Assembly: GCA_002441245.1 (NCBI GenBank)
Contig: DJVP01000005.1
Location: 2,303 to 66,302 of the forward strand
DNA from: Candidatus Omnitrophica bacterium UBA6253
GTDB lineage: Bacteria > Omnitrophota > Gorgyraeia > Gygaellales > Profunditerraquicolaceae
DNA length: 64,000 nt
Reading direction: 5' to 3'
The notes under the pieces are model-generated. The model had not been told where the DNA came from. It did not search any database and saw only the letters and a list, made by a program, of their open reading frames with translations. The position numbers were made by a program, and so were the translations under genes. Shown piece after piece: positions 3,701-45,391 of the stretch; position 1 is the first letter of the stretch, and each line of letters opens with the position of its first letter.

Positions 3701-3908
3701 GCCGCTGGCGATTAGTTCCGGCGCCGGAGCCGGAGCGCAGAACGCGATTGGAACGGCGGTTGTCGGGGGCATGCTTTCAGCCACATTCATCGACCTTATT
3801 TTTATCCCGCTATTTTTTATCCTCGTGACCCGCTTTTTTAAGCGTAAGCAAAAGCATCAGGTTGCTCCTGGTAATACGGATTTTAAGGAATTGCCGGATA
3901 AAGATTAA
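726..3908 (+). CDS. RND multidrug efflux pump, inner membrane permease (HAE1 / AcrB-MexB family)
   Basis: 1060 aa with 12 TM segments. The N-terminus reads MFSKFFLDRPVFAWVIAIMIMVLGG... Family motifs are present (e.g. VENVERLM, the FFFGVLPLA region). An RBS (GGAG) precedes the start. Confidence 0.95.
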   Translation: MFSKFFLDRPVFAWVIAIMIMVLGGLAIFTLPIAQYPPLAPPSIRVGCLYNGASAETVENSVTQIIEQQMTGLDKMLYMSSSSDSSGISTIELTFAPGTDPDVAWTKVQNKLQLAMARLPDSVQRRGVSVRKSTKNYLLIVGIVSEDGSMNAVDLRDYMLSVVQPVLARVPGVGEAEGFGGEYAMRIWFDPQKLTNYGLTVEDLTQALQNYNVEVSGGQFGGAPAVEGQRLNASIIVQSLLKTPEEFANIPIRINPDGSIIRIKDVGRAELGSDIDDTKVFYNKGQPSAAIAIRQEPGANALKTADAIRAKMKELSRYFPKGVKITYPYDTTPFTRVAIDEVIRTLIEAIMLVFLVMYLFMGNMRATLIPTIAVPVVLLGTFAVLGLFGYSINMLTMFAMVLAIGLLVDDAIVVVENVERLMSEEGLSPREASAKSMGQITPALVGIGLVLSAVFGPMAFFTGATGVIYRQFSVTVIAAMLLSVVVALILTPVLCATFLKPVPKGHQSAESGAWFLRSFFSWFDRIFFRIRDRYVGMVGHSFNRNARYVFFYLLIVVGMLIIFMRMPTGYLPDEDQGLLAVMGSLPSGSTLEQTETVMEKVRNYFMANEKKAVDSVLTISGQNQSGRGQNIGMAFVKLKDWNLRKKKSLKADAVADRAMKDFEKYKEALVYVFPPPAIIELGNAKGFDFELQDRSGVGHEKLMEARDQLIEMAKKDPRLTRVRANGLEDVAQYKIDLDWEKAGSLGVSISSIQDTISTAFGSSYVNDFIKDGRIKHVDIQADAPYRMLPGDLKNLYVRNSKGKMVPYASFASGHWGFGSPKLERFNAFPSINIWGEPAKGKSSGEAMQAMEELASKLPRDFGYDWTGLSYQERQSGFQAGPLYAFSILIIFLCVAALYESWSIPIVNLLMLPLGVFGATLATWMRGMPNDVYFQIGFLTTLGLSTKNAILIIQFAQQRLEHGEKLVEAILGAVRTRFRPVIMTSMAFFFGVLPLAISSGAGAGAQNAIGTAVVGGMLSATFIDLIFIPLFFILVTRFFKRKQKHQVAPGNTDFKELPDKD

Positions 3909-3909
3909 T

Positions 3910-5409
3910 ATGAAACGAATACTCTTTTTAATTTTAATAATTACCGTTTGCCTGAGCGGCTGTACCATGATTCCGAAATACAGCCGGCCGGAGAGTCCGG
4001 TTCCTGAACGCTGGCCAAGTGGGTCTGCTTATCAGCAGATGCCTCCGGCGCCTAAAGTTTTGGATGCTACGCAATTAAAATGGCGGGAATTCTTTGCCGA
4101 CCAAAAACTTCAGCAGATTATCGCGATGGCCCTTGATAATAACCGGGATCTTCGGTTGGCTGCTTTGAATGTTGAAAAGGCGCGTGCGCTGTACGGCGTC
4201 CAGCGGGCAAAATTGTTTCCGGTTGTCAACGCGGGAGCGGGATTAGATAAAGAACAGTATTCTTCTGATTTTATAAGTTCCGGAGCCCCCAGAAGAGTTG
4301 ACCAATATAGCGTCAACCTGGGTATTACTTCCTGGGAGATTGATTTTTTTGGGCGTATTCGCAGTTTAAAAAAACAGGCGCTGGAAGAATACTTAGGTAC
4401 GCAAGAGGCCCGCCGCAGCGCTCAGATTACATTGGTTTTGGAAGTTGTCAGGACGTATTTGATGATTGCCGCGGACAGGGAAAATCTTGAACTGGGTCGG
4501 TCTACCCTTAAGGCGCAGGAAGATGCTTATAGTATAGTTTCACGGAAATATAAAATTAATCTGGTCAATGAAATAGACCTGGAGCGGGCGCAAACCCAGG
4601 TGGATACTGCCTGGGGGGATGTTGTGCTTTATACACAGCAGGCCGCGCAGGATGAAAATGCCTTAAACCTTTTGGCCGGTTCTCCGGTTCCGGAAGACCT
4701 CTTGCCTCTTAATCTGGCAAGTATCAGCCCATTTATGGATATTTCTCCTGGTCTGTCTTCTGAGGTTCTTTTGAAACGGCCGGATATTATATTGGCTGAA
4801 CACCAGTTAAAGGGAGCTTATGCCAATATAGGGGCGGCCCGTGCCGCATTTTTCCCCAGTATTTCGCTGACTACTACTTTTGGTTCCGCGAGCAATGAAT
4901 TCTCCGGATTGTTTAAGGCCGGTAAGGGGACATGGACTTACGCCCCACAGGTAGTGATGCCGATTTTTGATGCCCGCACTTGGGCGGCATACAGGGTTAG
5001 TAAAGCGGATCGCAAGATTGCCTTGGCCCAATATGAGAAAGTTATCCAGACTGCTTTCAGGGAAGTTTCTGATGTTCTTGCTGTACGGGGAACGGTGGAT
5101 CAACAGATTTCCTTGCAGCAGTCGATAGTTGATTCTGCGCAGAAGGTTTATCTTCTTTCAAGCAAGCGCTACGCGAATGGAATCGACAGCTATTTGAGCG
5201 TCCTTGATGCGCAGCGATCGCTTTATAGCGCGCAGCAGGGGCTCATTTCTTTAAAGCTATCCAAGTTTGTAAATGAAGTGAAGGCTTACGCGGTGCTTGG
5301 AGGAGGCGGGTTTAATGAGGCAGATGAGCAGATGAGCGATAGTCGCGATTTGTTTGAAGAAAATGTTCTTTCGTTATTGGATCTTAAGCTTGGAAAATCA
5401 AGGCGTTGA
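3910..5409 (+). CDS. RND efflux outer membrane factor lipoprotein (NodT/OprM family)
   Basis: Lipobox LSGC follows the signal peptide (MKRILFLILIITVCLSGC). The two-repeat OEP architecture and length match OprM. The likelier start is the ATG at 3910, not the upstream ORF-track start that overlaps acrB. Confidence 0.9.
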   Translation: MKRILFLILIITVCLSGCTMIPKYSRPESPVPERWPSGSAYQQMPPAPKVLDATQLKWREFFADQKLQQIIAMALDNNRDLRLAALNVEKARALYGVQRAKLFPVVNAGAGLDKEQYSSDFISSGAPRRVDQYSVNLGITSWEIDFFGRIRSLKKQALEEYLGTQEARRSAQITLVLEVVRTYLMIAADRENLELGRSTLKAQEDAYSIVSRKYKINLVNEIDLERAQTQVDTAWGDVVLYTQQAAQDENALNLLAGSPVPEDLLPLNLASISPFMDISPGLSSEVLLKRPDIILAEHQLKGAYANIGAARAAFFPSISLTTTFGSASNEFSGLFKAGKGTWTYAPQVVMPIFDARTWAAYRVSKADRKIALAQYEKVIQTAFREVSDVLAVRGTVDQQISLQQSIVDSAQKVYLLSSKRYANGIDSYLSVLDAQRSLYSAQQGLISLKLSKFVNEVKAYAVLGGGGFNEADEQMSDSRDLFEENVLSLLDLKLGKSRR

Positions 5410-26173: not shown

Positions 26174-26208
26174 CTTGACAGGATAGTGGAAAATCATTAC
26201 TATAGAAA
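26174..26208 (+). promoter_or_regulatory. Sigma70-like promoter for the mscS leader
   Basis: TTGACA, then a 17-nt spacer, then TACTAT. Confidence 0.4.
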
Positions 26209-26238
26209 CAAAAGCAAAGCAGAATGAAATATTCCGGG

Positions 26239-26317
26239 TTCAGAAGTAATGATTATTTCTGAAGGGAGCATTGATGGTCGGGCCGCCATCTGATTTAAAA
26301 TCAGGTGGCGTTTTTTT
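26239..26317 (+). ncRNA. Structured 5'-UTR cis-regulatory element, copy 1 (hairpin A + antiterminator/terminator), upstream of mscS
   Basis: Hairpin A is UUCAGAAGUAA-UGA-UUAUUUCUGAA (26239-26263), followed by AGGG. The 20-mer GATGGTCGGGCCGCCATCTG (26273-26292) is identical to copy 2 and contains the GAUGG/CCAUC stem. Its CCAUC is shared with the terminator hairpin CCAUCUGAUUU-AAA-AAUCAGGUGG plus U7 (26286-26317). The element ends about 40 nt before the mscS start. Confidence 0.6.
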
Positions 26318-26356
26318 ATTTTTACGATATTCTTGGAAATGAATTCAGGAGAAATT

Positions 26357-27409
26357 ATGAACGGAATAATACTTGAGCAGGTTTTTTTAGGAAATAAAAT
26401 ATCGGATTATTTGATATCCGCTGTAGCTTTACTGGCCAGTTTTATGGTCATTAATATTTTTAAACGGCATTTCATAAAACGCCTTAAGAAAATCGCAGAA
26501 AGGACAACTACCACAGTAGATGATTTTCTGGTAAAGGTCATTGAAAAACTCGCCGTTCCTTTCTTATATCTGGTTGCTGTTTATACCATAGTAAAGAATT
26601 TTGCATTGTATCCTTACGTTGAACGCGGTATGAATTATTTAGGTTTTGCCGTTGTAATTGTTTTCGTTGCGCGTTTTGTTATTATGCTTGTTGGGTATGG
26701 TTTTAAAATATACCTGGCCAAAAATAGTAATGATGTTACTCTTGAGCACAGTCTCCAGGGTGTATTGATAGTGATAAAAGTATTGGTTTGGGGCGGCGCA
26801 ATCATCTTTTCTTTAGATAATCTTGGTTTTAAAATCTCAGCGATTATAGCAGGTTTGGGCATTGGCGGCGTGGCTGTGGCATTGGCGGCGCAGACTATCT
26901 TGAAAGATCTCTTCAGCTATTTTTCCATAATCTTTGATCAACCTTTTAAAGTCGGGGATTTCATTATAGTCGGAGACTATATGGGGACGATAGAATATAT
27001 CGGCATAAAGACAACGCGTATCCGCAGCCTGGGAGGGGAGATGCTCGTTTTTTCCAACTCGGATCTTACGGATTCGCGGTTACGTAATTATAAGTTAATG
27101 GAAAAAAGGCGGGTTGTGTTTAAATTAGGGGTTGTTTACCAGGTGCCCACTAAACAATTAAAAGAGTTGCCGAAAATTATAGAAGGAATTATAAAAAATA
27201 CAAAGGATGCAGTCTTTGACCGGGCCCATTTTTGTGCTTACGGAGATTTCAGTTTGATATTCGAAGTAGTATATTATGTGGTTGGTTCTGATTATAATAA
27301 ATATATGGATGTCCAGCAGGAGATTAATTTTTCCATTAAAGAAGAGTTTGAAAAAAGGGGTATCGAATTTGCATATCCAACTCAGACCCTTTATGTTAAT
27401 AAAAACTGA
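26357..27409 (+). CDS. mscS: Mechanosensitive ion channel, MscS family
   Basis: Pore-lining TM3 motif (IAGLGIGGVAVALAAQTILKDLFSYFSIIFD) followed by the beta-domain (FKVGDFIIVGDYMGTIEYIGIKTTRIRSLGGEMLVFSNSDL). Start set at the ATG 5 nt after AGGAG; the ORF track begins earlier at a TTG. Confidence 0.85.
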   Translation: MNGIILEQVFLGNKISDYLISAVALLASFMVINIFKRHFIKRLKKIAERTTTTVDDFLVKVIEKLAVPFLYLVAVYTIVKNFALYPYVERGMNYLGFAVVIVFVARFVIMLVGYGFKIYLAKNSNDVTLEHSLQGVLIVIKVLVWGGAIIFSLDNLGFKISAIIAGLGIGGVAVALAAQTILKDLFSYFSIIFDQPFKVGDFIIVGDYMGTIEYIGIKTTRIRSLGGEMLVFSNSDLTDSRLRNYKLMEKRRVVFKLGVVYQVPTKQLKELPKIIEGIIKNTKDAVFDRAHFCAYGDFSLIFEVVYYVVGSDYNKYMDVQQEINFSIKEEFEKRGIEFAYPTQTLYVNKN

Positions 27410-27432
27410 TTCTGAAGAAAGGAGCAAGAAAG

Positions 27433-28434
27433 ATGGACTGGAAAGAAGGAGTTCCTAATCCCAATGATATTATTGATGCAGGTAAGAAGAAATTTGGCGA
27501 TTTTTTAAAGTTCCTGCCTTTGGTAATTGTTGGTTTTTTTATACTGGCAGGCTTAAGGGGGGTAATTTATTCCATAGGGCCAGACGAGGTAGGCGTAATT
27601 CAAAGGTTTGGTAAATACATTGCCTTAAGTTCACCTGGGCTGCACGCAAAAATACCCTTTGGGATAGATAAGGTGATGCCGATTAAAGTAGAAAAGGTTT
27701 TCAAAGAGGAATTCGGGTTTAAGACCATAGAGCCGGGGCGCAGGACAACATATTCCGCGCGTAAATATGAGGATGAATCATTGATGCTTACCGGAGACTT
27801 GAATATACTAGATGTGCGCTGGATAGTACAGTTTAAGATAAAAGATCCGGTAAAATTGCTTTTCGCTACACGTCACCCCGAAGATAATATACACGACATT
27901 TCCGAAGTAGTTATGCGGCGTTTTGTCGGGGATTATTCTGTAGATGAAGTCCTTACTACTAAAAGAGAAGAGATAGATGATTTGGCGCAGCAAGAGATTC
28001 AGCGTATACTTGATAATTATAATGTTGGAGTGCATATAGTTACGGTTAAGCTATTGGATGTTAATCCTCCTGAGGCGGTAAAGTCCGCATTTAACGAAGT
28101 AAATGAGGCTAAACAGGAAAAAGAAAAGATGATTAACCAAGCTTGGGAAGCATATAATAAAGTTATTCCTAAGGCCAAGGGTACAGCAGAAAAGACTATC
28201 CGTGAATCAGAGGGTTATGCTATGGATAAGATAAACCGTGCAAGGGGGGAATCAGCCAGATTCCTTGCTACCTTAGAGGAGTATAAGAAAGCCCCGGATA
28301 TAACTAAAAAGAGGCTGTATTTAGAAACTTTGACGCAAGTTTTTCCTAACGCAAAAGAGAAATACATAATTGATTCGCAGCAAAAATCAATTCTACCTCT
28401 TTTGGATATTAACAAGAAAGGAGGGCAGCAGTAA
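27433..28434 (+). CDS. hflK: FtsH protease modulator HflK (SPFH/band-7)
   Basis: N-terminal TM, then GVIQRFGKY...SPGLHAKIPF and the SPFH domain. Paired with hflC. Confidence 0.9.
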   Translation: MDWKEGVPNPNDIIDAGKKKFGDFLKFLPLVIVGFFILAGLRGVIYSIGPDEVGVIQRFGKYIALSSPGLHAKIPFGIDKVMPIKVEKVFKEEFGFKTIEPGRRTTYSARKYEDESLMLTGDLNILDVRWIVQFKIKDPVKLLFATRHPEDNIHDISEVVMRRFVGDYSVDEVLTTKREEIDDLAQQEIQRILDNYNVGVHIVTVKLLDVNPPEAVKSAFNEVNEAKQEKEKMINQAWEAYNKVIPKAKGTAEKTIRESEGYAMDKINRARGESARFLATLEEYKKAPDITKKRLYLETLTQVFPNAKEKYIIDSQQKSILPLLDINKKGGQQ

Positions 28435-29393
28435 TGAGGACATTACGTTTAATTATTGGGTTTTTTGCGGTATTATTAGCTATTATATTGCTTTTGTTTG
28501 CCTTCGGCGCGATATATATAATCGAAGAAGGAAAACAGGCGGTTGTTACGCAATTCGGAAAACCCGTGGGCAACCCGATTACCTCGGCTGGCCTGCATTT
28601 TAAGCAGCCATTAATTCAGGAAGTGCATTATTTTGAGAAGAGGCTGTTAGATTGGGACGGAGACCCAAACCAGATACCTACTAAAGATAAAAAATATATC
28701 TGGGTGGATACTACTGCCCGATGGAAAATTGTAGATGCTTTGAAATTCCTGCAGTCAGTAGGCAATGAAATGAGTGCTCAGGGCAGGATCGATGATATCA
28801 TAAACTCCGCAACCAGGGATATAATTACCAGCCATCTTTTGGTTGAAGCGGTAAGGGATTCTAACCGTATTTTGGAGTCCAGAGTAGAAGGTGAGGATAT
28901 GATTGTTACGGATGAGGCATTAGAACGTATTGAAGTAGGCAGAAAAATGCTGGAGAGCGCAATTTTAGAAAAAGCAAAAGTTCTTGCCCCCCAATATGGT
29001 ATTGATATTGTTGATGTGCGTATTAAACGCGTAAATTATGTAGAAGATGTGCGTAATAAAGTTTATGATCGTATGATTGCCGAAAGAAAGCGTGCCGCAG
29101 AGAAATATCGTTCCGAAGGCCAGGGAAAATCTGCTGAGATAGAGGGGCAGGTAGCCAAGGAATTAAAGGCTATTACTTCGGAGGCCTACCGTCAGGCGCA
29201 GATTATTACCGGTAAGGCGGATGCCGAAGCAATCAGTATATATGCTAGCGCATACAGTCAGGATTCCGATTTTTATTCTTTTATGAAAACACTGGAAACT
29301 TACAGAACTACTATTGATGAAAAATCTACGATAATATTGACTACCGACAGTGAATATTATAAATATATAAAGTCCTTGGATGCTTCGAAATAG
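28434..29393 (+). CDS. hflC: FtsH protease modulator HflC (SPFH/band-7)
   Basis: N-terminal TM, AVVTQFGKPVG...AGLHFKQPLIQ, and the SPFH domain. Its start overlaps the hflK stop (ATGA). Confidence 0.9.
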   Translation: MRTLRLIIGFFAVLLAIILLLFAFGAIYIIEEGKQAVVTQFGKPVGNPITSAGLHFKQPLIQEVHYFEKRLLDWDGDPNQIPTKDKKYIWVDTTARWKIVDALKFLQSVGNEMSAQGRIDDIINSATRDIITSHLLVEAVRDSNRILESRVEGEDMIVTDEALERIEVGRKMLESAILEKAKVLAPQYGIDIVDVRIKRVNYVEDVRNKVYDRMIAERKRAAEKYRSEGQGKSAEIEGQVAKELKAITSEAYRQAQIITGKADAEAISIYASAYSQDSDFYSFMKTLETYRTTIDEKSTIILTTDSEYYKYIKSLDASK

Positions 29394-32809: not shown

Positions 32810-33084
32810 CTCCTAGAACCAGTATCCAGGTTTTATTGCCTTACGGCAGCAAAGATTTGTATGTTACAGCAGGCTGCAAGAGTAAGCGGGTCGGCAATTC
32901 TTAACCAAAATGCGAAATGCCGGGTGTAATCTGTGCTATTCTAAAGGCTTAAGGCATCGTGTTTACCGGGCCATATCAAATTCTATCTTAATCCCTATGC
33001 AATAATGAGAATATCTCTTTAATTATCCGGGGGCTTTCTGCAAAATTTATTCTTAATTCACGAAAGATATATGTCTTGAGGTAT

Positions 33085-33102
33085 TAACTGGAAGTGATAT
33101 AA
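33085..33102 (+). promoter_or_regulatory. Promoter -10 region (TATAAT) for the otsA operon leader
   Basis: TATAAT at 33097-33102, with TTGAGG about 17 nt upstream. Confidence 0.4.
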
Positions 33103-33128
33103 TATGTAAGAATAAAGTTAGTAAGTGG

Positions 33129-33213
33129 TCCGGAAGTACTCTAGGGTATTTCTGGAGGGGTTTTTTGATGGTCGGGCCGCCATCTGGTTTAATAATCAGA
33201 TGACGGTTTTGTT
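33129..33213 (+). ncRNA. Structured 5'-UTR cis-regulatory element, copy 2, upstream of sensor-otsA/mscS/otsB/treT operon
   Basis: Hairpin A' is UCCGGAAGUA-CUCUAGGG-UAUUUCUGGA (33129-33156), with compensatory changes relative to copy 1, followed by AGGGG. The identical 20-mer GATGGTCGGGCCGCCATCTG is at 33167-33186. The terminator-like hairpin is CAUCUGGUU-UAAU-AAUCAGAUG plus a U-rich tract (33181-33213). An RBS (GAGGAG) and the ATG at 33233 follow. Confidence 0.6.
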
Positions 33214-33232
33214 CCTTAGAGGAGCTAATTAA

Positions 33233-35470
33233 ATGAAAAGAATTCTTCTGTTTATCTTACCTATATTAATTTTAGTAGCGCTTGGATTTGCTATTTCAGG
33301 TATTATGCAGGCTCGTTTCACAGAAGAAAAGCTTATGGATGATTTGAAAAGAAAAGCCAAGTCTGTGGATGAGAGCCTGGAGTTATCCGCAAGGTATATC
33401 CTTATTAATAACGATTTAAGGCAAGCCAATCGTTTAGTTGATAGCTTCCAGAAGAGAGAAAGGCTGCAGGGGTGTGTTATTTATAATAAGGATGGCCAAA
33501 TACTGGCTATTACTGAGCGGTTCTCTGATTTTAAACAAAGAGAAAGGCCATATCTTAAAGATATCCTATCTACTAAGAATCCGCGGGGATCTCTAGAAAA
33601 ATTTAAAGAATATTCTGTATATAGTTACATTTTGCCTGTTTTAAATGACGATGAGAGCGTGCTGGGGATGGTAGAGGTAATTTATGATACTTCTTATATG
33701 TTTTCTACTTTAACGGAACTATGGAGAAAAATAAGCGTTACCTCTATTGCACTTATTTTACTGATAGTTTTAACTGCCTTATTAATCCAAAGGCAGATTT
33801 TTATTGTTCCTGTGCGCAGGTTAACCCAATGGTTTACGCATTTCCAGAGAGGGGAAACTGATAAATTGCAGCCATTTGAAGAAAAAGGTGAATTCGGAAA
33901 ACTCATTAGTGAAGTAGAGCAGGTTGCCTTAAGCATAAGAGTGGCCCGCCGTACCATGTCTGATGAAGCGCATGTCCGGTTGCAAAAAGAAGAACTTTGG
34001 ACTGAAGCTAAACTTAAAGATCTTATCCATGCAAAGCTGGGAAATAATTCACTATTTGTGGTTTCCAACAGAGAGCCATATATGCATGTTTTCGATGATG
34101 CCCTGGGTAAGGAGATATGTATAAGGCCGGCAAGCGGAGTTGTCACTGCGATACATCCTATACTTTCAGCATGCGGCGGTACATGGATTGCTCATGGCAG
34201 CGGTAATTCCGATAGAAAATTTGTTAATTCTAAAGATAAACTCGGTGTTCCCCCTGAAGATAACCGGTATATCCTTAAGAGAGTATGGCTTAATAAAGAG
34301 GAGGAACAAGGCTATTATTACGGTTTTTCTAATGAAGGTTTATGGCCCTTATGCCATAATACGCACACACGTCCAATTTTTAAAGAATCTGATTGGCGTA
34401 TGTATAAAGAAGTAAATCAGAAGTTTGCGGATAGTGTTTTGAGTGAGTTGCCAGCCAGCAGTCCGTTTATATTTGTACAGGATTACCATTTTACTCTTCT
34501 CCCAAAGATGATAAAAGATAAGCGTCCGGATGCAAAAGTAGCCTTATTCTGGCATATCCCCTGGCCTACTCCCGAAGCCTTTATGATTTGCCCTTATCAA
34601 AATGAAATTCTAGAGGGAATGTTGGGTTGCGATTTGATTGGTTTCCATGTCCAGAATCATTGTAATAATTTTCTTGATACCGCTAATCGCCTGCTTGAGT
34701 CACGCGTAGATACTGAAAGATTCAGCGTTGTGCGTTCGGGAAAAGAAACTTTTATAAGAGCTTTTCCTATAAGCATTAACGCGCATATAGAAGATGGCTC
34801 ATTCAAGGTTGATCCGATAAGGCAGGTGGAAAAGTTGAAAAAAGAGTTTGAACTTAAAAATGAGATTATTGCTGTGGGTGTAGATAGGATTGATTACACT
34901 AAAGGTATAGTTGAGAGAATCTTGGCGATAGACAGGTTTCTAGATAAATATCCTGAATATAAAAAGAAATTTGTTTTTATCCAATTGGCCGCTCCAAGCC
35001 GTACGCATATTAAGCGTTATCACGATTTAATTGGAGAAATTGATGAATTAGTTGAAAAGATTAACTGGAAGCATATAGATGGTAATTGGAAGCCGATAAT
35101 TTATCTCAAAAAGCATTTTTCCCAAGACGATATTCAGCCTTATTATAAACTTGGTGATATTTGTATAGTTAGTTCACTGCATGACGGAATGAATTTAGTG
35201 GCTAAAGAGTATGTTGCGGAGAAGGATGATCTGTCCGGGGCTTTAATCTTAAGTCAATTTACCGGAGCAGCGCGTGAACTTACTGATGCTATCATGGTTA
35301 ATCCATATTCGATTGAAGAGTTTGCCGATAGCATAAGGCTGGCAGTCCAGATGCCTAAGGAGGAGAAGCGGAGGCGTATGGAGAATATGCGCCAGGTGAT
35401 AGCTGAAAACAATATTTACCGTTGGGCAGCAAATATTATTACCGAGTTGGTTGCATTAAAGAAAATATAA
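33233..35470 (+). CDS. otsA: Trehalose-6-phosphate synthase (OtsA, GT20) fused to an N-terminal membrane sensor module (TM - periplasmic domain - TM - HAMP-like)
   Basis: Residues 1-260 contain TM1, an approximately 140-aa extracytoplasmic domain, TM2 and a HAMP-like amphipathic linker. GT20 follows (LFVVSNREPY, WPLCH, FVQDYHFTLLP, WHIPWP, VGVDRIDYTKG). Confidence 0.85.
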   Translation: MKRILLFILPILILVALGFAISGIMQARFTEEKLMDDLKRKAKSVDESLELSARYILINNDLRQANRLVDSFQKRERLQGCVIYNKDGQILAITERFSDFKQRERPYLKDILSTKNPRGSLEKFKEYSVYSYILPVLNDDESVLGMVEVIYDTSYMFSTLTELWRKISVTSIALILLIVLTALLIQRQIFIVPVRRLTQWFTHFQRGETDKLQPFEEKGEFGKLISEVEQVALSIRVARRTMSDEAHVRLQKEELWTEAKLKDLIHAKLGNNSLFVVSNREPYMHVFDDALGKEICIRPASGVVTAIHPILSACGGTWIAHGSGNSDRKFVNSKDKLGVPPEDNRYILKRVWLNKEEEQGYYYGFSNEGLWPLCHNTHTRPIFKESDWRMYKEVNQKFADSVLSELPASSPFIFVQDYHFTLLPKMIKDKRPDAKVALFWHIPWPTPEAFMICPYQNEILEGMLGCDLIGFHVQNHCNNFLDTANRLLESRVDTERFSVVRSGKETFIRAFPISINAHIEDGSFKVDPIRQVEKLKKEFELKNEIIAVGVDRIDYTKGIVERILAIDRFLDKYPEYKKKFVFIQLAAPSRTHIKRYHDLIGEIDELVEKINWKHIDGNWKPIIYLKKHFSQDDIQPYYKLGDICIVSSLHDGMNLVAKEYVAEKDDLSGALILSQFTGAARELTDAIMVNPYSIEEFADSIRLAVQMPKEEKRRRMENMRQVIAENNIYRWAANIITELVALKKI

Positions 35471-35484
35471 CTTATGAGGGGTAA

Positions 35485-36540
35485 ATGGAAGAAAATTTAT
35501 TCTTAAGACTTCCTGATTTAGCTGAAAAGTTTATGCCATTGTTTATTTTTTTGGTAGTTTTATCTATAGGGTTAATTCTTAAGTGGATAATCTTTAATCG
35601 TTTTTTACATTGGGCCAAGAAAGCATCTACGCAACTTGATGATATTATTATGCGAGCAATTAAGGGGCCGTTTATGGTTTTATGCCTGATGTTAAGTTTG
35701 TATTTTGCCCTGCAATTCTCAAAATTACCAGAAAATATTGTGCATGTTATAAGTAAAAGCATACTTATACTGGGGATAATTTCTGTAATGTTAGCATCGG
35801 CGAATTTGCTATCCGGGATGATAAAAACTTATGCCACCAGGGTTGATTCCGCCTTGGCTGTTACCAGCCTTACTCAGAATATTGCCAGGATTTTTGTTTT
35901 TTCAATCGGCACATTAATAATTCTTAACAGCTTGGGCATATCCATAACTCCCATATTAGCAACTTTGGGAGTGGGTGGTTTAGCAGTTGCCTTGGCCCTC
36001 CAGGATACCTTGACAAATCTTTTTGCAGGTTTTCATATCACTATTGTAAAACAGGTAAGGGTCGGTGATTATATTAAATTGGAAACAGGAGAAGAAGGCT
36101 ATGTGGTTGATATTAACTGGCGTTCAACAAAGATCAAGATGTTGGCCAATAATCTTGTTCTCGTACCGAACGATAAATTAAATAAAGCCATTGTTACCAA
36201 TTATTTCTTGCCAGATAAGGAAATGTCAGTTTTGATTGATCTGGGAGTGCATTATAAAAGCGACCTGGAGAAAGTGGAGAGGGTTACTTCTGAGGTGGCC
36301 AAATCCGTTATGACAGAGGTAAACGGCGGGGTTGCCTATTTTGAGCCGTTTATCCGCTATCATACATTTGGGGATTCCGGCATAAAGTTTACAGTTATAT
36401 TAAGGGTTAAGGAATTTGTTGATCAGTATCTGATAAAGCATGAGTTTATTAAAAGGTTGCACAAGCGCTATATCAAAGAAGAGATTGGGATCCCTTATCC
36501 TGTAAGGGCGATAAACTATGAACAGGAGAAAGTAGCTTGA
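35485..36540 (+). CDS. Mechanosensitive ion channel, MscS family (second copy)
   Basis: TM3 pore motif (LATLGVGGLAVALALQDTLTNLFAGFHITIV) and beta-domain (VRVGDYIKLETGEEGYVVDINWRSTKIKMLANNLVLVPNDKL). It lies 14 bp after otsA. Confidence 0.85.
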   Translation: MEENLFLRLPDLAEKFMPLFIFLVVLSIGLILKWIIFNRFLHWAKKASTQLDDIIMRAIKGPFMVLCLMLSLYFALQFSKLPENIVHVISKSILILGIISVMLASANLLSGMIKTYATRVDSALAVTSLTQNIARIFVFSIGTLIILNSLGISITPILATLGVGGLAVALALQDTLTNLFAGFHITIVKQVRVGDYIKLETGEEGYVVDINWRSTKIKMLANNLVLVPNDKLNKAIVTNYFLPDKEMSVLIDLGVHYKSDLEKVERVTSEVAKSVMTEVNGGVAYFEPFIRYHTFGDSGIKFTVILRVKEFVDQYLIKHEFIKRLHKRYIKEEIGIPYPVRAINYEQEKVA

Positions 36541-36546
36541 TATAAA

Positions 36547-37344
36547 ATGCGCCATGTTTTTAATGATCTGGAAAATATAAAAATAAGTTTAGCGGATAAA
36601 TATTTATATTTATTTCTTGATTACGATGGGACGTTAGCTCCTATTGCTGGTACCCCGGATAAAGCGATAATTCCGCAAAGGACAAAAAGGTTACTTGATT
36701 TACTGTCAAAAAAAAATAATTGCAGAATAGCAGTTATTAGTGGCAGGGCCTTGGCTGACATAAAGAAAAGAATTGGTCTTAAAAATGTAATTTATTCAGG
36801 TAATCATGGTTTTCAAATAGACGGTCCGAAGATTAAGCATGGGTTGCCAGTTTCTCCGGCGTATAAAAAGGCATTGTTGCGCATTAAAACCCAGCTTAAG
36901 GAAAAGCTTTCCGGTACAAAAGGAATCTTTATCGAGGATAAAGGATTTTCGTTAGCACTGCATTTCAGGCTTGTTGATAAGGGGGAGCTTTCCTTTGTTA
37001 AAACCATCTTCCGTAAGAGTATTGTTCCATATTTAATAAGAAATAAGATTAAGATTAGGCCTGGCAAGAAAGTTCTTGAAGTAATGCCGCCAGTGGATTG
37101 GGATAAAGGGAAAGTTGTTTTGTGGCTTTTAACAAGGCAGATCCTTGCGTTTAAGAAAAAAAACATTTTTCCTGTTTATATCGGTGACGATGTAACTGAC
37201 GAAGATGCATTCAGGGCGTTAAAGGGGAAAGGTCTGACGATATTTGTTGGCAAACCCGGGAATTCTAAAGCGGATTACTACTTAAAGAATGCAGAAGAAG
37301 TAGTTAAATTCATGCGTTTAATAGGGGATTTAAAACTTAACTGA
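36547..37344 (+). CDS. otsB: Trehalose-6-phosphate phosphatase (OtsB, HAD-IIB)
   Basis: HAD motif I is FLDYDGTLAP. Motif III/IV is GDDVTDEDAF. Size matches OtsB. Confidence 0.85.
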   Translation: MRHVFNDLENIKISLADKYLYLFLDYDGTLAPIAGTPDKAIIPQRTKRLLDLLSKKNNCRIAVISGRALADIKKRIGLKNVIYSGNHGFQIDGPKIKHGLPVSPAYKKALLRIKTQLKEKLSGTKGIFIEDKGFSLALHFRLVDKGELSFVKTIFRKSIVPYLIRNKIKIRPGKKVLEVMPPVDWDKGKVVLWLLTRQILAFKKKNIFPVYIGDDVTDEDAFRALKGKGLTIFVGKPGNSKADYYLKNAEEVVKFMRLIGDLKLN

Positions 37345-37346
37345 TT

Positions 37347-38018
37347 ATGCCGGAATTAATAAAGGCAAAAGAGCCGTTTAGGTTTTGTACAAGATTGCAT
37401 TTATCAGAGCTGACCGGATTACGGGCTACTACTTTAGGCCAGCTTTTAGTCCTTATTAAGGAAGTGCCTGGTTCATGTATCTATCACCATACGCATAGGT
37501 TCTTGCAGCAGCATCAGTATCTTTCTCCTGAGCCTCCTAACGACTTCGCCTACTGGGTAACGGATATCCTTGGAGAAGATGAACTTGGAGAAAGGCTGGT
37601 TAGTATCGATACTATGCAATATTCAACTATCCGTGATCTTCGCGATAAGATTGCTTTGACTATTGAGGATTGTTTACGGGATAGCCCGTTCGCTAAATTG
37701 AAATTTGCCAGATCCGGGGAAGAGTTCCATTTCATGAAGTCGGTCAGTTTTATCCTGCCGACAAACTATTTTGTTTATGATCTGGAGGAATTTGCAAAGG
37801 TTTTAAAGAAAATTACCATTGATTCTATTTATTTCCATATTTTTGAAGCGCGCCTTAGGCTCGAAAAATCAACGAATGACTTTTCATATTGGATAGAAAA
37901 CTCTTTGGGGGATAAGGAATTAGCGGATAAGATTTCCGGTTTTGATCCCTATACCCGTACTTTGGAGGATTTAAGAAATAAGATTATCCAAATAGTAGAA
38001 AGAAGGATAACCGATTAA
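37347..38018 (+). CDS. Hypothetical protein with internal tandem duplication (2 x ~100 aa), trehalose-operon associated
   Basis: Repeat signature is F[RH]F...IY.H...NDF[AS]YW..LG..EL...D....T..DLR.KI. It occurs twice, at residues 11-110 and 118-220. Confidence 0.5.
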   Translation: MPELIKAKEPFRFCTRLHLSELTGLRATTLGQLLVLIKEVPGSCIYHHTHRFLQQHQYLSPEPPNDFAYWVTDILGEDELGERLVSIDTMQYSTIRDLRDKIALTIEDCLRDSPFAKLKFARSGEEFHFMKSVSFILPTNYFVYDLEEFAKVLKKITIDSIYFHIFEARLRLEKSTNDFSYWIENSLGDKELADKISGFDPYTRTLEDLRNKIIQIVERRITD

Positions 38019-39233
38019 ATGGCGAAAATAGAAGAGTATATACCCTTAGTGGGGCAAGCAGTTATCGATGATTTAAGATTGCTTAGCGAACGGTTGAAAG
38101 GTAAGGTGATCCAGCATATAAATTCTACTCCTGTAGGAGGCGGGGTTGCGGAGATATTAAGCCGCATGGTGCCTTTATTAAGGGAATTAGGAGTAGATAC
38201 GAAATGGGATGTAATAAAAGGGGGAGAGCAATTTTTTGGAGTTACAAAGAAATTTCATAATTCCTTGCATGGCAGGGCTGAAGAAATAACTCAAAGGGAT
38301 TTTGAGATATTTATGGAAACGAGCCAGCAGAATATTGAGAGTGTCAATGCTTATGGGGATATAGTTTTTGTCCATGACCCGCAGCCAATAGCCTTGATAA
38401 AAAAGAAAGCTGATAATAAATGGCTTTGGCGTTGCCATATTGATGTAGCCAGTCCTAATGAAAAAGTCTGGGGATTCCTTATGGATTTTATACCTCGTTA
38501 CGATTCAGCAGTATTTTCCGCTCCTGCTTTTTCACGGAGATTACCTATTAGGCAATTCTTAATCCCTCCTTCCATTGATCCGCTAAGCGATAAAAATAAA
38601 GAGTTGCCGCAGGAAACAATAAACTTTGTTTTAAGAAAATACAATATCAAGAAAGATAAGCCTATTGTTATTCAAATCTCCCGCTTTGATCGTTTAAAAG
38701 ACCCTGTAGGCGTAATTGAGGCATATTTGCAAGTAAAGAAATACATTGATTGTCAATTGATTTTGGCTGGCGGATCAGCAGAGGATGATCCCGAGGGATT
38801 TAAGGTTTTAGAGGAAGTTAAGGAAAGAGCCAAGAAAGACCCGGATATCCATATTTTATTATTACCTCAAAATGATATAGAGGTTAATGCATTGCAGAGA
38901 GCTTCAGATGTAATTGTTCAAAAGTCCCTAAAGGAAGGATTCGGCTTAACTGTATCTGAGGCTTTGTGGAAAGCAAAGCCAGTTGTAGCTTCAAATGTTG
39001 GAGGTATTCCCTTGCAAATAAAACATAAATATTCAGGTTTACTCTGCCATTCAATCGAAGGGGCCAGTTTTGCCATAAAACAACTCTTAAGCAGCCCGGC
39101 TTACGCCAGTAAATTGGGGGAAAATGGGCGTGAGCATATAAAAAATAATTTCTTGATTACGCGTCATTTAAGAGATTATATGTTGTTGTTTCTTTCATTG
39201 TATCATCCTGAGGATATCGTTAATCTCTGCTGA
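38019..39233 (+). CDS. treT: Trehalose glycosyltransferring synthase TreT (GT4; NDP-glucose + glucose -> trehalose)
   Basis: Near-colinear with archaeal TreT over the full length: HINSTPVGGGVAEIL, VHDPQPIALI, WLWRCHID, PPSIDPLSDKNKEL, ISRFDRLKDP, AGGSAEDDPEG, LKEGFGLTVSEALWK. Confidence 0.85.
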   Translation: MAKIEEYIPLVGQAVIDDLRLLSERLKGKVIQHINSTPVGGGVAEILSRMVPLLRELGVDTKWDVIKGGEQFFGVTKKFHNSLHGRAEEITQRDFEIFMETSQQNIESVNAYGDIVFVHDPQPIALIKKKADNKWLWRCHIDVASPNEKVWGFLMDFIPRYDSAVFSAPAFSRRLPIRQFLIPPSIDPLSDKNKELPQETINFVLRKYNIKKDKPIVIQISRFDRLKDPVGVIEAYLQVKKYIDCQLILAGGSAEDDPEGFKVLEEVKERAKKDPDIHILLLPQNDIEVNALQRASDVIVQKSLKEGFGLTVSEALWKAKPVVASNVGGIPLQIKHKYSGLLCHSIEGASFAIKQLLSSPAYASKLGENGREHIKNNFLITRHLRDYMLLFLSLYHPEDIVNLC

Positions 39234-44426: not shown

Positions 44427-44527
44427 AGTGCGATATCGGGGGAGGCTGGTTAACCGGCCTGAGAGTTCTGTGCAGTAAACAGATTACCCTTATGAACCTG
44501 ATCTGGATAATGCCAGCGGAGGGAGGT
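44427..44527 (+). ncRNA. TPP (thiamine pyrophosphate) riboswitch aptamer (THI element)
   Basis: GGGGGAGGCUGG...GGCCUGAGAG...ACCCUUAUGAACCUGAUCUGGAUAAUGCCAGCGGAGGGA matches the THI-box consensus (CUGAGA, ACCUGAUCUGGAUAAUGCCAGCG, AGGGA). Confidence 0.9.
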
Positions 44528-44536
44528 TAATGCGTG

Positions 44537-44566
44537 ACCCTTATGCAATTGGCATAAGGGTTTTTT
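44537..44566 (+). terminator. Intrinsic terminator acting as the TPP riboswitch expression platform
   Basis: ACCCUUAUGC-aauug-GCAUAAGGGU is a perfect 10-bp stem, followed by UUUUUU. Its 5' arm repeats the aptamer segment ACCCUUAUG. Confidence 0.85.
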
Positions 44567-44611: not shown

Positions 44612-45391
44612 ATGCAATTAGATGAAATAAAAATTTCCAAGGCCATTATTGAATCATATAACAACAAATTAATTGATGCACTTGATGTTGATGTTGCTAT
44701 TGTTGGGGCAGGACCTGCCGGTATGGTGTGTGGTTATTATCTGGCTAAAGCAGGAAAGAAAGTAGTGCTTTTTGAAAGAAAACTTTCAGTTGGCGGAGGC
44801 ATGTGGGGCGGAGGGATCATGTTTAATGAAATAGTGGTTCAGGATAAGGCCAAAGGTATTCTCGATGAATTTGGCATTAGAAGCAGGTGCTATGAACCGG
44901 GCTATTATTTAGCGGATTCCGTAGAGTCAGTATCAACTATCTGTTCTAAAGCGATGAAGGCAGGTCTGAGAATTTTTAACCTTATGAGCGTAGAGGATGT
45001 TATGGTACGAAGAAAGAAAGTAGTAGGCTTGGTATTGAATTGGACTGCGGTAGAAATGGCGAAGTTGCACGTTGATCCGATTACTATGCGCGCTAAAGTC
45101 GTGGTGGATGCGACAGGACATCCAGCAGAAGTAACGCGTATTGTTGAAAGAAAATCCGGAATAAGACTTAAGACAAAAACCGGGAAAACATTAGGAGAAG
45201 AATCAATGTGGGCGCAGGTGGGAGAAGAAACGATTGTGGAAAATTCAAAGCAGGCCTGTTCTGGTTTGTATACCTGTGGCATGTGTGCGAATGCGGTTTT
45301 TGGCGGCCCGCGTATGGGGCCGATATTCGGCGGAATGCTTCTTGCCGGTAAAAAAGTTGCCAAAGATTTGATCAATAAGCTTGTTTGCTAA
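44612..45391 (+). CDS. thi4: Thiazole synthase, Thi4 family (eukaryal/archaeal-type thiamine thiazole biosynthesis enzyme)
   Basis: FAD/NAD dinucleotide fold ([21 protein letters not shown]), [19 protein letters not shown] and the C-terminal [14 protein letters not shown]. Sits directly behind the TPP riboswitch. Confidence 0.85.

Follow-up and report, generated by a model that had tools for sequence, protein, structure and literature searches.

Two nhaA-I riboswitches, probably sodium-responsive transcriptional ON switches, precede a trehalose operon and an mscS-SPFH gene cluster of an Omnitrophota-like bacterium

The locus considered here raises the question of what function is served by a short leader element that occurs in front of a trehalose operon and, in a second version, in front of an mscS gene on the same stretch of DNA. 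A preliminary description, made from the letters alone, had presented the element as a conserved, cis-acting leader ending in an intrinsic terminator, with an invariant 20-mer acting as a ligand- or protein-binding core flanked by structural helices. The window, as the entire 64-kb stretch analyzed is called here, has a G+C content of 42% and shares 78-82% nucleotide identity with contigs of Omnitrophota MAGs over stretches of 2-7 kb; its otsA gene is present at 99-100% nucleotide identity on contigs of GCA_028718365.1 and of three metagenome assemblies. The observation itself is real, the features lying where they had been placed, and the interpretation given to it was partly supported by the analyses detailed below.

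The leader of the trehalose operon, referred to as copy 2, is composed of the following features.

33076..33103, + strand: promoter-like site, with -35 TTGAGG, a 16-nt spacer, -10 TATAAT and an upstream TG (a prediction, with 10 of 12 consensus matches)
33126..33185, + strand: aptamer, matching Rfam RF03057 (nhaA-I) over model positions 1-55 of 55
33129..33156, + strand: P1 hairpin, 12 bp with a 4-nt loop (RNAfold and terminator scan)
33130-33155, + strand: P1 in the register of the family, flanked by UGGU at 33126-33129 (consensus GGGU) and AGG at 33156-33158
33156..33166, + strand: P1-P2 joining region AGGGGUUUUUU, with a conserved AGG and a tail of variable length
33167..33184, + strand: P2 hairpin GAUGGU-CGGGCC-GCCAUC, the main part of the invariant 20-mer
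33177..33213, + strand: intrinsic terminator, with core stem 33181-33189/33194-33202 and extension 33177-33179/33204-33206
33221-33225 and 33233-33235, + strand: ribosome-binding site AGGAG and otsA start codon, both read from the sequence

From 33126 to 33213, copy 2 thus consists of the P1 hairpin, a G/U-rich linker, the GATGGTCGGGCCGCCATCTG block (33167-33186), and a hairpin with its U-tract. The arms of the terminator are CAUCUGGUU/AAUCAGAUG (33181-33202), extendable to 33177-33206, and the hairpin is followed by ACGGUUUUGUU, with the U-tract UUUUGUU at 33207-33213. Given that transcription is predicted to start about 7 nt downstream of the promoter-like site, the aptamer would lie within the 5' leader. 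P1 is the same hairpin that had been described with 10 bp and an 8-nt loop, but RNAfold also closes the inner C-G and U.G pairs, which yields 12 bp and a loop of 4 nt. When a simple scan was applied, P1 followed by GGGGUUUUUU (33129-33166) was also scored as terminator-like; this is probably incidental, since the U-run is set off from the stem by four G residues and linker length is not constant among strains, though it could cause some ligand-independent early termination. Among strain variants, the sole change inside this riboswitch is one U fewer in the linker, at 33161.

The other leader, copy 1, displays the same layout at 26236-26323.

26175..26203, + strand: promoter-like site, with TTGACA, a 17-nt spacer and TACTAT (a prediction)
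26236..26291, + strand: aptamer, RF03057 nhaA-I, with P1 within 26239-26263 and P2 at 26273-26290
26284..26323, + strand: intrinsic terminator, a 12-bp stem (26284-26310) followed by U7AU5

P1 of copy 1 has 11 bp and a 3-nt loop, in agreement with the preliminary description, and the terminator arms are CGCCAUCUGAUU/AAUCAGGUGGCG (26284-26310), overlapping the 3' arm of P2 at 26285-26290. Both copies end in an intrinsic terminator, as had been claimed, and both terminator stem sequences, with G.U pairs at different positions, had been recorded correctly. A distance of 23-33 nt separates the predicted promoter-like hexamers from the aptamer downstream of them, and the elements themselves precede mscS and otsA by 42-48 nt, on the strand that also carries these genes.

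Comparison of the two leaders demonstrates that GATGGTCGGGCCGCCATCTG occurs exactly twice in the 64-kb window, at 26273 and 33167, where chance would be expected to produce no occurrence, even with 3 mismatches allowed. The identical run shared by the copies is in fact 22 nt long (TTGATGG...CTG). When the copies were aligned together with 140-nt flanks, identity was limited to the element and consisted of this 22-mer and scattered matches within the stems; outside approximately 26236-26312 and 33126-33206 nothing aligned beyond an AT-rich background. As the flanks of the two copies are unrelated and cannot be aligned, a recent segmental duplication was rejected, in keeping with the earlier argument that the copies are not remnants of a duplicated segment. 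A third copy near 15.5 kb, suggested by synteny with another locus (L025) in which an element stands just beyond the matching block, is absent, and a permissive Rfam scan (E<=1) detected no third nhaA-I copy anywhere in the 64-kb window.

The identity of the element was established with the Rfam covariance model RF03057 (nhaA-I), for which the gathering score is 37 bits. Copy 1 scores 48.3 bits and copy 2 38.9 bits, in both cases over model positions 1-55 of 55, and since both exceed the curated gathering threshold, the matches are well beyond chance. The presence of a conserved cis-acting leader in two copies is thereby borne out, and it is close to certain that the element is the nhaA-I riboswitch, an already-known family. 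Copy 2 lies only 1.9 bits over the gathering score, which counts against the preferred reading; its deviations are UGGU for GGGU and a G in place of the consensus U after AGG. P1 is bracketed by GGGU and AGG in copy 1 and by UGGU and AGG in copy 2, the single deviation falling at the first G, and the top of P2, GAUGGUCGGGCCGCCAUC (GGU-CGGGCC-GCC), equals the model consensus in both. The possibility that the G after AGG is a signature of an otsA/mscS subclass was considered and discarded, as relatives in front of the same operons have U, A or G at this site. No other Rfam family matched at E<=1 at either copy, and membership in the Na+-I/DUF1646 family was rejected after searches of 7.8 kb and of the whole window produced no model match at the same threshold. 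The nhaA-I motif, first described in 2017 (PMC5737381), received its validation as the Li+-I riboswitch in 2022, when the name Na+-II was given to rare variants (PMC9646797; PMC9337991), and otsA, with 16 cases, and mscS, with 3, already appear in the published table of its gene associations (PMC9646797). A limited search of the literature brought up no structure and no additional validation of this class from after 2022.

How such an element could control transcription is indicated by the overlap between P2 and the terminator, a feature that the preliminary description missed and that constitutes the switching mechanism. Specifically, the 5' arm of the copy 2 terminator (33177-33189) contains the 3' half of P2 (33177-33184), and the equivalents in copy 1 are 26284-26295 and 26285-26290; because the 3' half of P2 forms part of the 5' arm of the terminator, the two structures are mutually exclusive. 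Consistent with this geometry, folding of the full leader yields P1 and the terminator, and folding of the aptamer segment alone yields P1 and P2, for both copies. Compared with the terminator fold, a structure in which P2 is enforced is less stable by 9.0 kcal/mol in copy 2 and by 10.9 kcal/mol in copy 1, so that the default state is OFF and control must be kinetic. It is accordingly close to certain that both copies are transcriptional ON switches under kinetic control, although the short and interrupted U-tract of copy 2 (UUUUGUU) counts against the preferred reading. The idea of a binding core flanked by helices survives as far as its ligand-binding nature is concerned, but the 20-mer is itself the P2 helix plus the two bases with which the terminator begins; the unpaired bases that are conserved belong to the GGGU preceding P1, to the AGG that follows it and to the loop of P2.

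Together these data lead us to favor, with a probability of roughly 80%, the reading that both copies are monovalent-cation-sensing ON riboswitches of the nhaA-I (Li+-I/Na+-II) class, with Na+ as the most likely trigger. Under the mechanism proposed, transcription would begin some 15-25 nt upstream of the aptamer, and P1, followed by P2, would be made first. Without ligand, the downstream sequence would capture the 3' half of P2 to form the much more stable terminator, and at the U-tract transcription would stop before otsA (copy 2) or mscS (copy 1). A cation held in a pocket composed of GGGU, AGG and the CGGGCC loop would instead maintain P2 until the polymerase had passed the U-tract, and the operon would be transcribed. 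The trigger would most likely be a rising cytoplasmic Na+ concentration, serving as a proxy for salt or osmotic stress. Precedent is provided by the Na+-II RNA of Desulfobulbus propionicus (D. propionicus), which has the same architecture, binds Na+ with a KD of approximately 1.4 mM, displays Na+-dependent read-through in single-round transcription, and loses its Na+ response upon mutation of AGG (M2) or of the P2 loop (M3) (PMC9646797). Cation binding and cation-induced read-through, demonstrated by others on this relative, would extend to the window copies by analogy.

The genes placed under this presumed control were delineated from open reading frames and domain searches.

33233..39233, + strand: copy 2 operon, otsA-mscS-otsB-DUF5752-treT
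33233-35470, + strand: otsA, with an N-terminal TM/Cache-like extension and a GT20 domain
35485-36540, + strand: mscS of the trehalose operon
36547-37344, + strand: otsB (Trehalose_PPase)
37347-38018, + strand: DUF5752 gene
38019-39233, + strand: treT
26357..29393, + strand: copy 1 genes, mscS-SPFH-SPFH
26357-27409, + strand: mscS behind copy 1
27433-28434 and 28434-29393, + strand: SPFH/Band-7 genes behind copy 1

The presence of GT20 OtsA, Trehalose_PPase and TreT downstream of copy 2 upholds the earlier assignment of a trehalose operon. Induction would therefore be expected to yield trehalose, a compatible solute, via OtsA/OtsB and TreT, along with MscS channels and SPFH membrane-scaffold proteins that would ready the membrane for later solute release. 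Mla-type ABC genes (MlaE/F/D) and a gene for an auxiliary lipoprotein begin 170 nt past the SPFH genes, and may or may not be co-transcribed with them.

Several further observations concern these genes and their surroundings. Firstly, the N-terminal ~270 residues of OtsA (33233-34050) form, in front of the GT20 domain, a membrane helix and a weak Cache-like region that falls short of the Pfam cutoff; this architecture, ~744 residues long, is found behind the riboswitch in many other loci, and the extension suggests a second, protein-level sensory input. Secondly, the DUF5752 gene between otsB and treT occupies the same place in the trehalose operons of five other loci (L043, L070, L089, L114, L119), a position that points to an uncharacterized role in trehalose metabolism. 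Additionally, a contig 99% identical to the window (L122; GCA_028718365.1, JAQUMA010000015.1) lacks approximately 0.8 kb corresponding to 36402-37219, with which the 3' end of mscS and all of otsB are missing; the gap may reflect either a real deletion or an artefact of assembly. Elsewhere in the window, a TPP riboswitch (RF00059, 59.3 bits; 44428-44541, + strand) is followed by genes for a Thi4-family thiazole synthase (44612-45391), a DUF2284 protein and a MatE transporter.

To what extent the two leaders resemble others of their kind can be judged from a genome scan, restricted to one genome per species, in which the pattern TGWTRGYCGGGCCGCYAWC was found at at least 120 loci; the resulting counts are a sample rather than a census, as most of P2, along with the preceding base, was fixed in the pattern, and for the same reason covariation within P2 is not independently assessable. 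Among the 120 loci listed, about 70 are real elements, with P1 between GGGU and AGG, and about 50 are matches by chance within coding regions of GC-rich genomes; of 20 loci checked against Rfam, 19 contain a match that exceeds the RF03057 gathering score. A hairpin with a U-run is present in 67 of the 72 elements among the matches listed, and in 61 of those 67 the terminator pairs with at least four of the six bases of the P2 3' arm. Among these same matches, P2 is followed by 50 different 6-mers, every one of them with a matching 3' arm of its own. When 53 relatives were aligned by anchors, all seven scored pairs of P1 proved to have changed on both sides, with 96.7% of cells paired against 31-58% when partners were slid, and a covariation score of 0.539 against 0.10-0.15; sequences were admitted only if a P1 hairpin was found, which inflates the percentage paired but not the contrast with slid partners. 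The earlier claim that the stems tolerate and compensate substitutions thus exceeded what two copies alone can support, but the wider survey reveals such compensation for both P1 and the terminator. A metagenome scan with a pattern open at P1 and at the outer pairs of P2 contributed about 8 convincing elements among 120 mostly GC-rich loci listed, adding, among these matches, three elements with a G-C basal pair and no terminator and three with a C-G basal pair and a terminator.

The genes behind these relatives constitute a sodium and osmotic-stress regulon. The operon found behind copy 2 also follows RF03057 matches in other loci; the element stands before otsA-containing operons in 16 other loci listed, in several of which mscS comes first, and before mscS and/or SPFH genes in about 10, with the arrangement riboswitch-mscS-SPFH-SPFH recurring in L028, L109 and L111. 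Other genes in this position encode NhaA, NhaB, Na_H_Exchanger and CitMHS/NhaD-like transporters, the beta subunit of the Na+-pumping oxaloacetate decarboxylase, an Rnf/Nqr subunit, a P-type cation ATPase, TRAP DctQ, CNNM/CorC, a GH15 trehalase-like protein, pyruvate kinase, and pairs of DapB-like and ATP-grasp proteins. The pairing of riboswitch and operon extends across phyla. Going by record titles, and as far as possibly imperfect MAG binning allows, the hosts of the elements belong to the Omnitrophota, Planctomycetota, Elusimicrobiota, Nitrospirota/Thermodesulfovibrionales, Desulfobacterota (Syntrophales, Smithella, Desulfobacterales), Patescibacteria, Clostridia and Bacteriovoracaceae. 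At least eight groups at phylum level contain terminator-type elements, and the statement that terminator-bearing variants occur only in Deltaproteobacteria (PMC9646797) does not hold for the present sample.

Some of the relatives show features of their own. Tandem or triple elements, each with its own terminator, are present in L042 and L077 (three each) and in L016, L105 and L240 (two each), unlike the window, which contains single elements only. L028 carries elements at 2468-2518 and 3727-3778, the second of which lies between mscS and SPFH genes, and L111 has a ZMP/ZTP riboswitch (RF01750, 44.4 bits; 4917-4997, + strand) downstream of its riboswitch-mscS-SPFH-SPFH cluster. In four loci of Smithella/Syntrophaceae (L045, L086, L101, L113), the element precedes a gene for a DapB-like reductase and/or an ATP-grasp (D-Ala-D-Ala ligase-like) protein, which may represent a compatible-solute pathway; a link to dapB/kamA has similarly been reported for the DUF1646 motif (PMC5737381).

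The closest characterized system is the Na+-II RNA that precedes a 'hypothetical' gene in D. propionicus (White et al., 2022, Sci Rep 12:19145; PMC9646797). Shared with it are the two-hairpin aptamer (GGGU, P1, AGG, linker, and P2 with a CGGGCC loop), a pyrimidine-purine basal pair in a very similar P1 (UCCAGAAAC/GUUUCUGGA versus UCCGGAAGUA/UAUUUCUGGA), the use of the P2 3' arm as the terminator 5' arm, and the ON logic. The window copies differ from it in having U rather than C at position 54, G rather than U after AGG, and a GAUGGU/GCCAUC rather than a GUUAGC/GCUAAC P2 stem, and also in host (Omnitrophota-like versus deltaproteobacterial) and in controlling identifiable osmoadaptation genes instead of one for a hypothetical protein. 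With the Li+-I RNAs of the nhaA leaders of Pseudomonas monteilii and Ralstonia eutropha, the copies share membership in RF03057, GGGU, AGG, GGUCGGGCCGCC and U54, but the Li+-I RNAs examined have a G-C basal P1 pair (followed by C-G in the consensus) and AGGUU, are thought to act at the ribosome-binding site and not via a terminator, and precede nhaA, mostly in Proteobacteria, whereas the window copies precede otsA and mscS. Na+-I RNAs (DUF1646 motif) are likewise similar in consensus, according to the authors, and sense Na+, usually with terminators, in front of Na+ transport and osmotic-stress genes, but differ in lower P1 and in the P2 loop (PMC9646797). The c-di-AMP (ydaO/kimA) riboswitch offers a functional analogy only, in that an osmotic signal is conveyed to compatible-solute and ion-transport genes. 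Its fold and ligand are unrelated to those of nhaA-I, and a whole-window Rfam search found no match to it.

As regards the ligand, position 54 is the last base of the P2 5' arm, where the sequence reads GUUAGC|CGGGCC in Na+-II and GGU|CGGGCC in Li+-I RNAs and the consensus (PMC9646797 supplement). Position 54 is the specificity position of the D. propionicus Na+-II RNA, where it is C; its equivalents, placed from the M4 template sequence, are U33172 in copy 2 and U26278 in copy 1. The C54U mutant (M4) of the Na+-II RNA loses selectivity and responds to Li+, Na+ and NH4+ (PMC9646797). By the published criterion, then, U at this position means that the window copies are not Na+-II RNAs and match the C54U mutant. 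The basal pair of P1 is Y-R as in D. propionicus, being U-A with GAAGGG in copy 1 and C-G with GGAGGG in copy 2, and among the relatives listed it is C-G in 42, U-A in 8 and G-C in 1. The G-C basal pair and GCAGGU junction of the Rfam consensus and of the three validated Li+-I constructs are absent from both copies, and none of the four G-C basal elements among the matches listed in the two scans (L067, L128, L149, L199) has a terminator. C54 is rare even among terminator-type RNAs, being found in 4 of the 72 elements among the matches listed, and two of these four (L087, L089) stand in front of the otsA operon that U54 elements also precede. The sodium-centered gene set, in combination with the Y-R basal pair and the sharing of the otsA operon by C54 and U54 versions, makes Na+ the most probable physiological signal of the window copies, a claim that we would back at somewhat better than even odds. 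The authors of the 2022 study likewise suggest, for the RNAs associated with otsA, a possible role in sensing Na+ in connection with osmotic stress (PMC9646797).

For both copies, then, Na+ is inferred to act as the signal in place of Li+. That they are instead Li+-selective (Li+-I) switches, through which trehalose and channels would provide a defense against lithium toxicity and not a response to sodium or osmotic stress, is unlikely, even though U at the equivalent of position 54 is the Li+-I state, the RF03057 model matched by both copies is composed mostly of Li+-I members, and Li+ control of otsA has been offered as a possibility, Li+ being known to alter trehalose metabolism in some eukaryotes (PMC9646797). 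The Li+-I RNAs examined combine a G-C basal pair, the lack of a terminator and a downstream nhaA gene, none of which applies to the window copies; elements of the same type as theirs control genes for the Na+-pumping decarboxylase, Rnf/Nqr, NhaB and TRAP proteins, which point to Na+; C54 and U54 versions control the same otsA operon; and Li+ is rare in nature, with a KD of at least 20 mM for Li+-I (PMC9646797). Slightly harder still to credit is a lack of selectivity, by which the copies would sense small cations or ionic strength, with Na+, Li+ and NH4+ about equally effective, and ammonium or salt would induce the operons. The copies do equal the M4 mutant at both recognizable features, the Y-R basal P1 pair and U54, but this comparison involves one mutant in one background, natural RNAs differ from it in the P2 stem and linker, and ammonium-related genes are absent among the downstream genes surveyed; moreover, Na+ would dominate in cells, such that an unselective sensor would merge in practice with the Na+-triggered switch favored here. 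A leader that senses no ligand, being bound by a protein or small RNA or representing a duplicated intergenic remnant with an ordinary terminator, is very improbable: a hairpin and terminator can, as a general fact, serve protein-mediated attenuation, but the flanks of the two copies are unrelated, conservation supported by covariation extends across many phyla and before non-homologous genes, and members of this curated family bind cations directly in vitro.

In light of published work, the finding is an ordinary one, as the family, the ON-switch mechanism and the gene associations were already known in 2022, and nothing fundamental is changed for the riboswitch field. What is added is the occurrence of terminator-type nhaA-I RNAs beyond Deltaproteobacteria, the almost invariable presence in them of U and not C at the proposed specificity position, and the existence of C54 and U54 versions on the same otsA operon, all of which render the question of Na+ versus Li+ testable with two or three templates. 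It is tentatively proposed, at slightly less than even odds, that the window elements belong to a large riboswitch group, spread over many phyla, that the 2022 description of Na+-II missed. Such a group may be marked by its terminator platform, a Y-R basal P1 pair and usually U54 in place of C, and may range over the Omnitrophota, Planctomycetota, Elusimicrobiota, Nitrospirota, Desulfobacterota and others. The residual interest accordingly lies in the ligand of this U54 terminator-type subgroup, and in a phylogenetic range much wider than that reported.

For the bacterium itself, an uncultivated Omnitrophota-like organism, the analysis assigns a signal and a mechanism, at the strengths given above, to two osmoadaptation operons encoding trehalose synthesis, MscS and SPFH proteins. 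Should these elements prove to be true Na+ sensors, specificity would not be determined in nature by position 54, Na+-II riboswitches would be common and not a rare deltaproteobacterial variant, and Na+ sensed by RNA would be a main trigger of trehalose production and of MscS/SPFH expression in uncultivated anaerobes.
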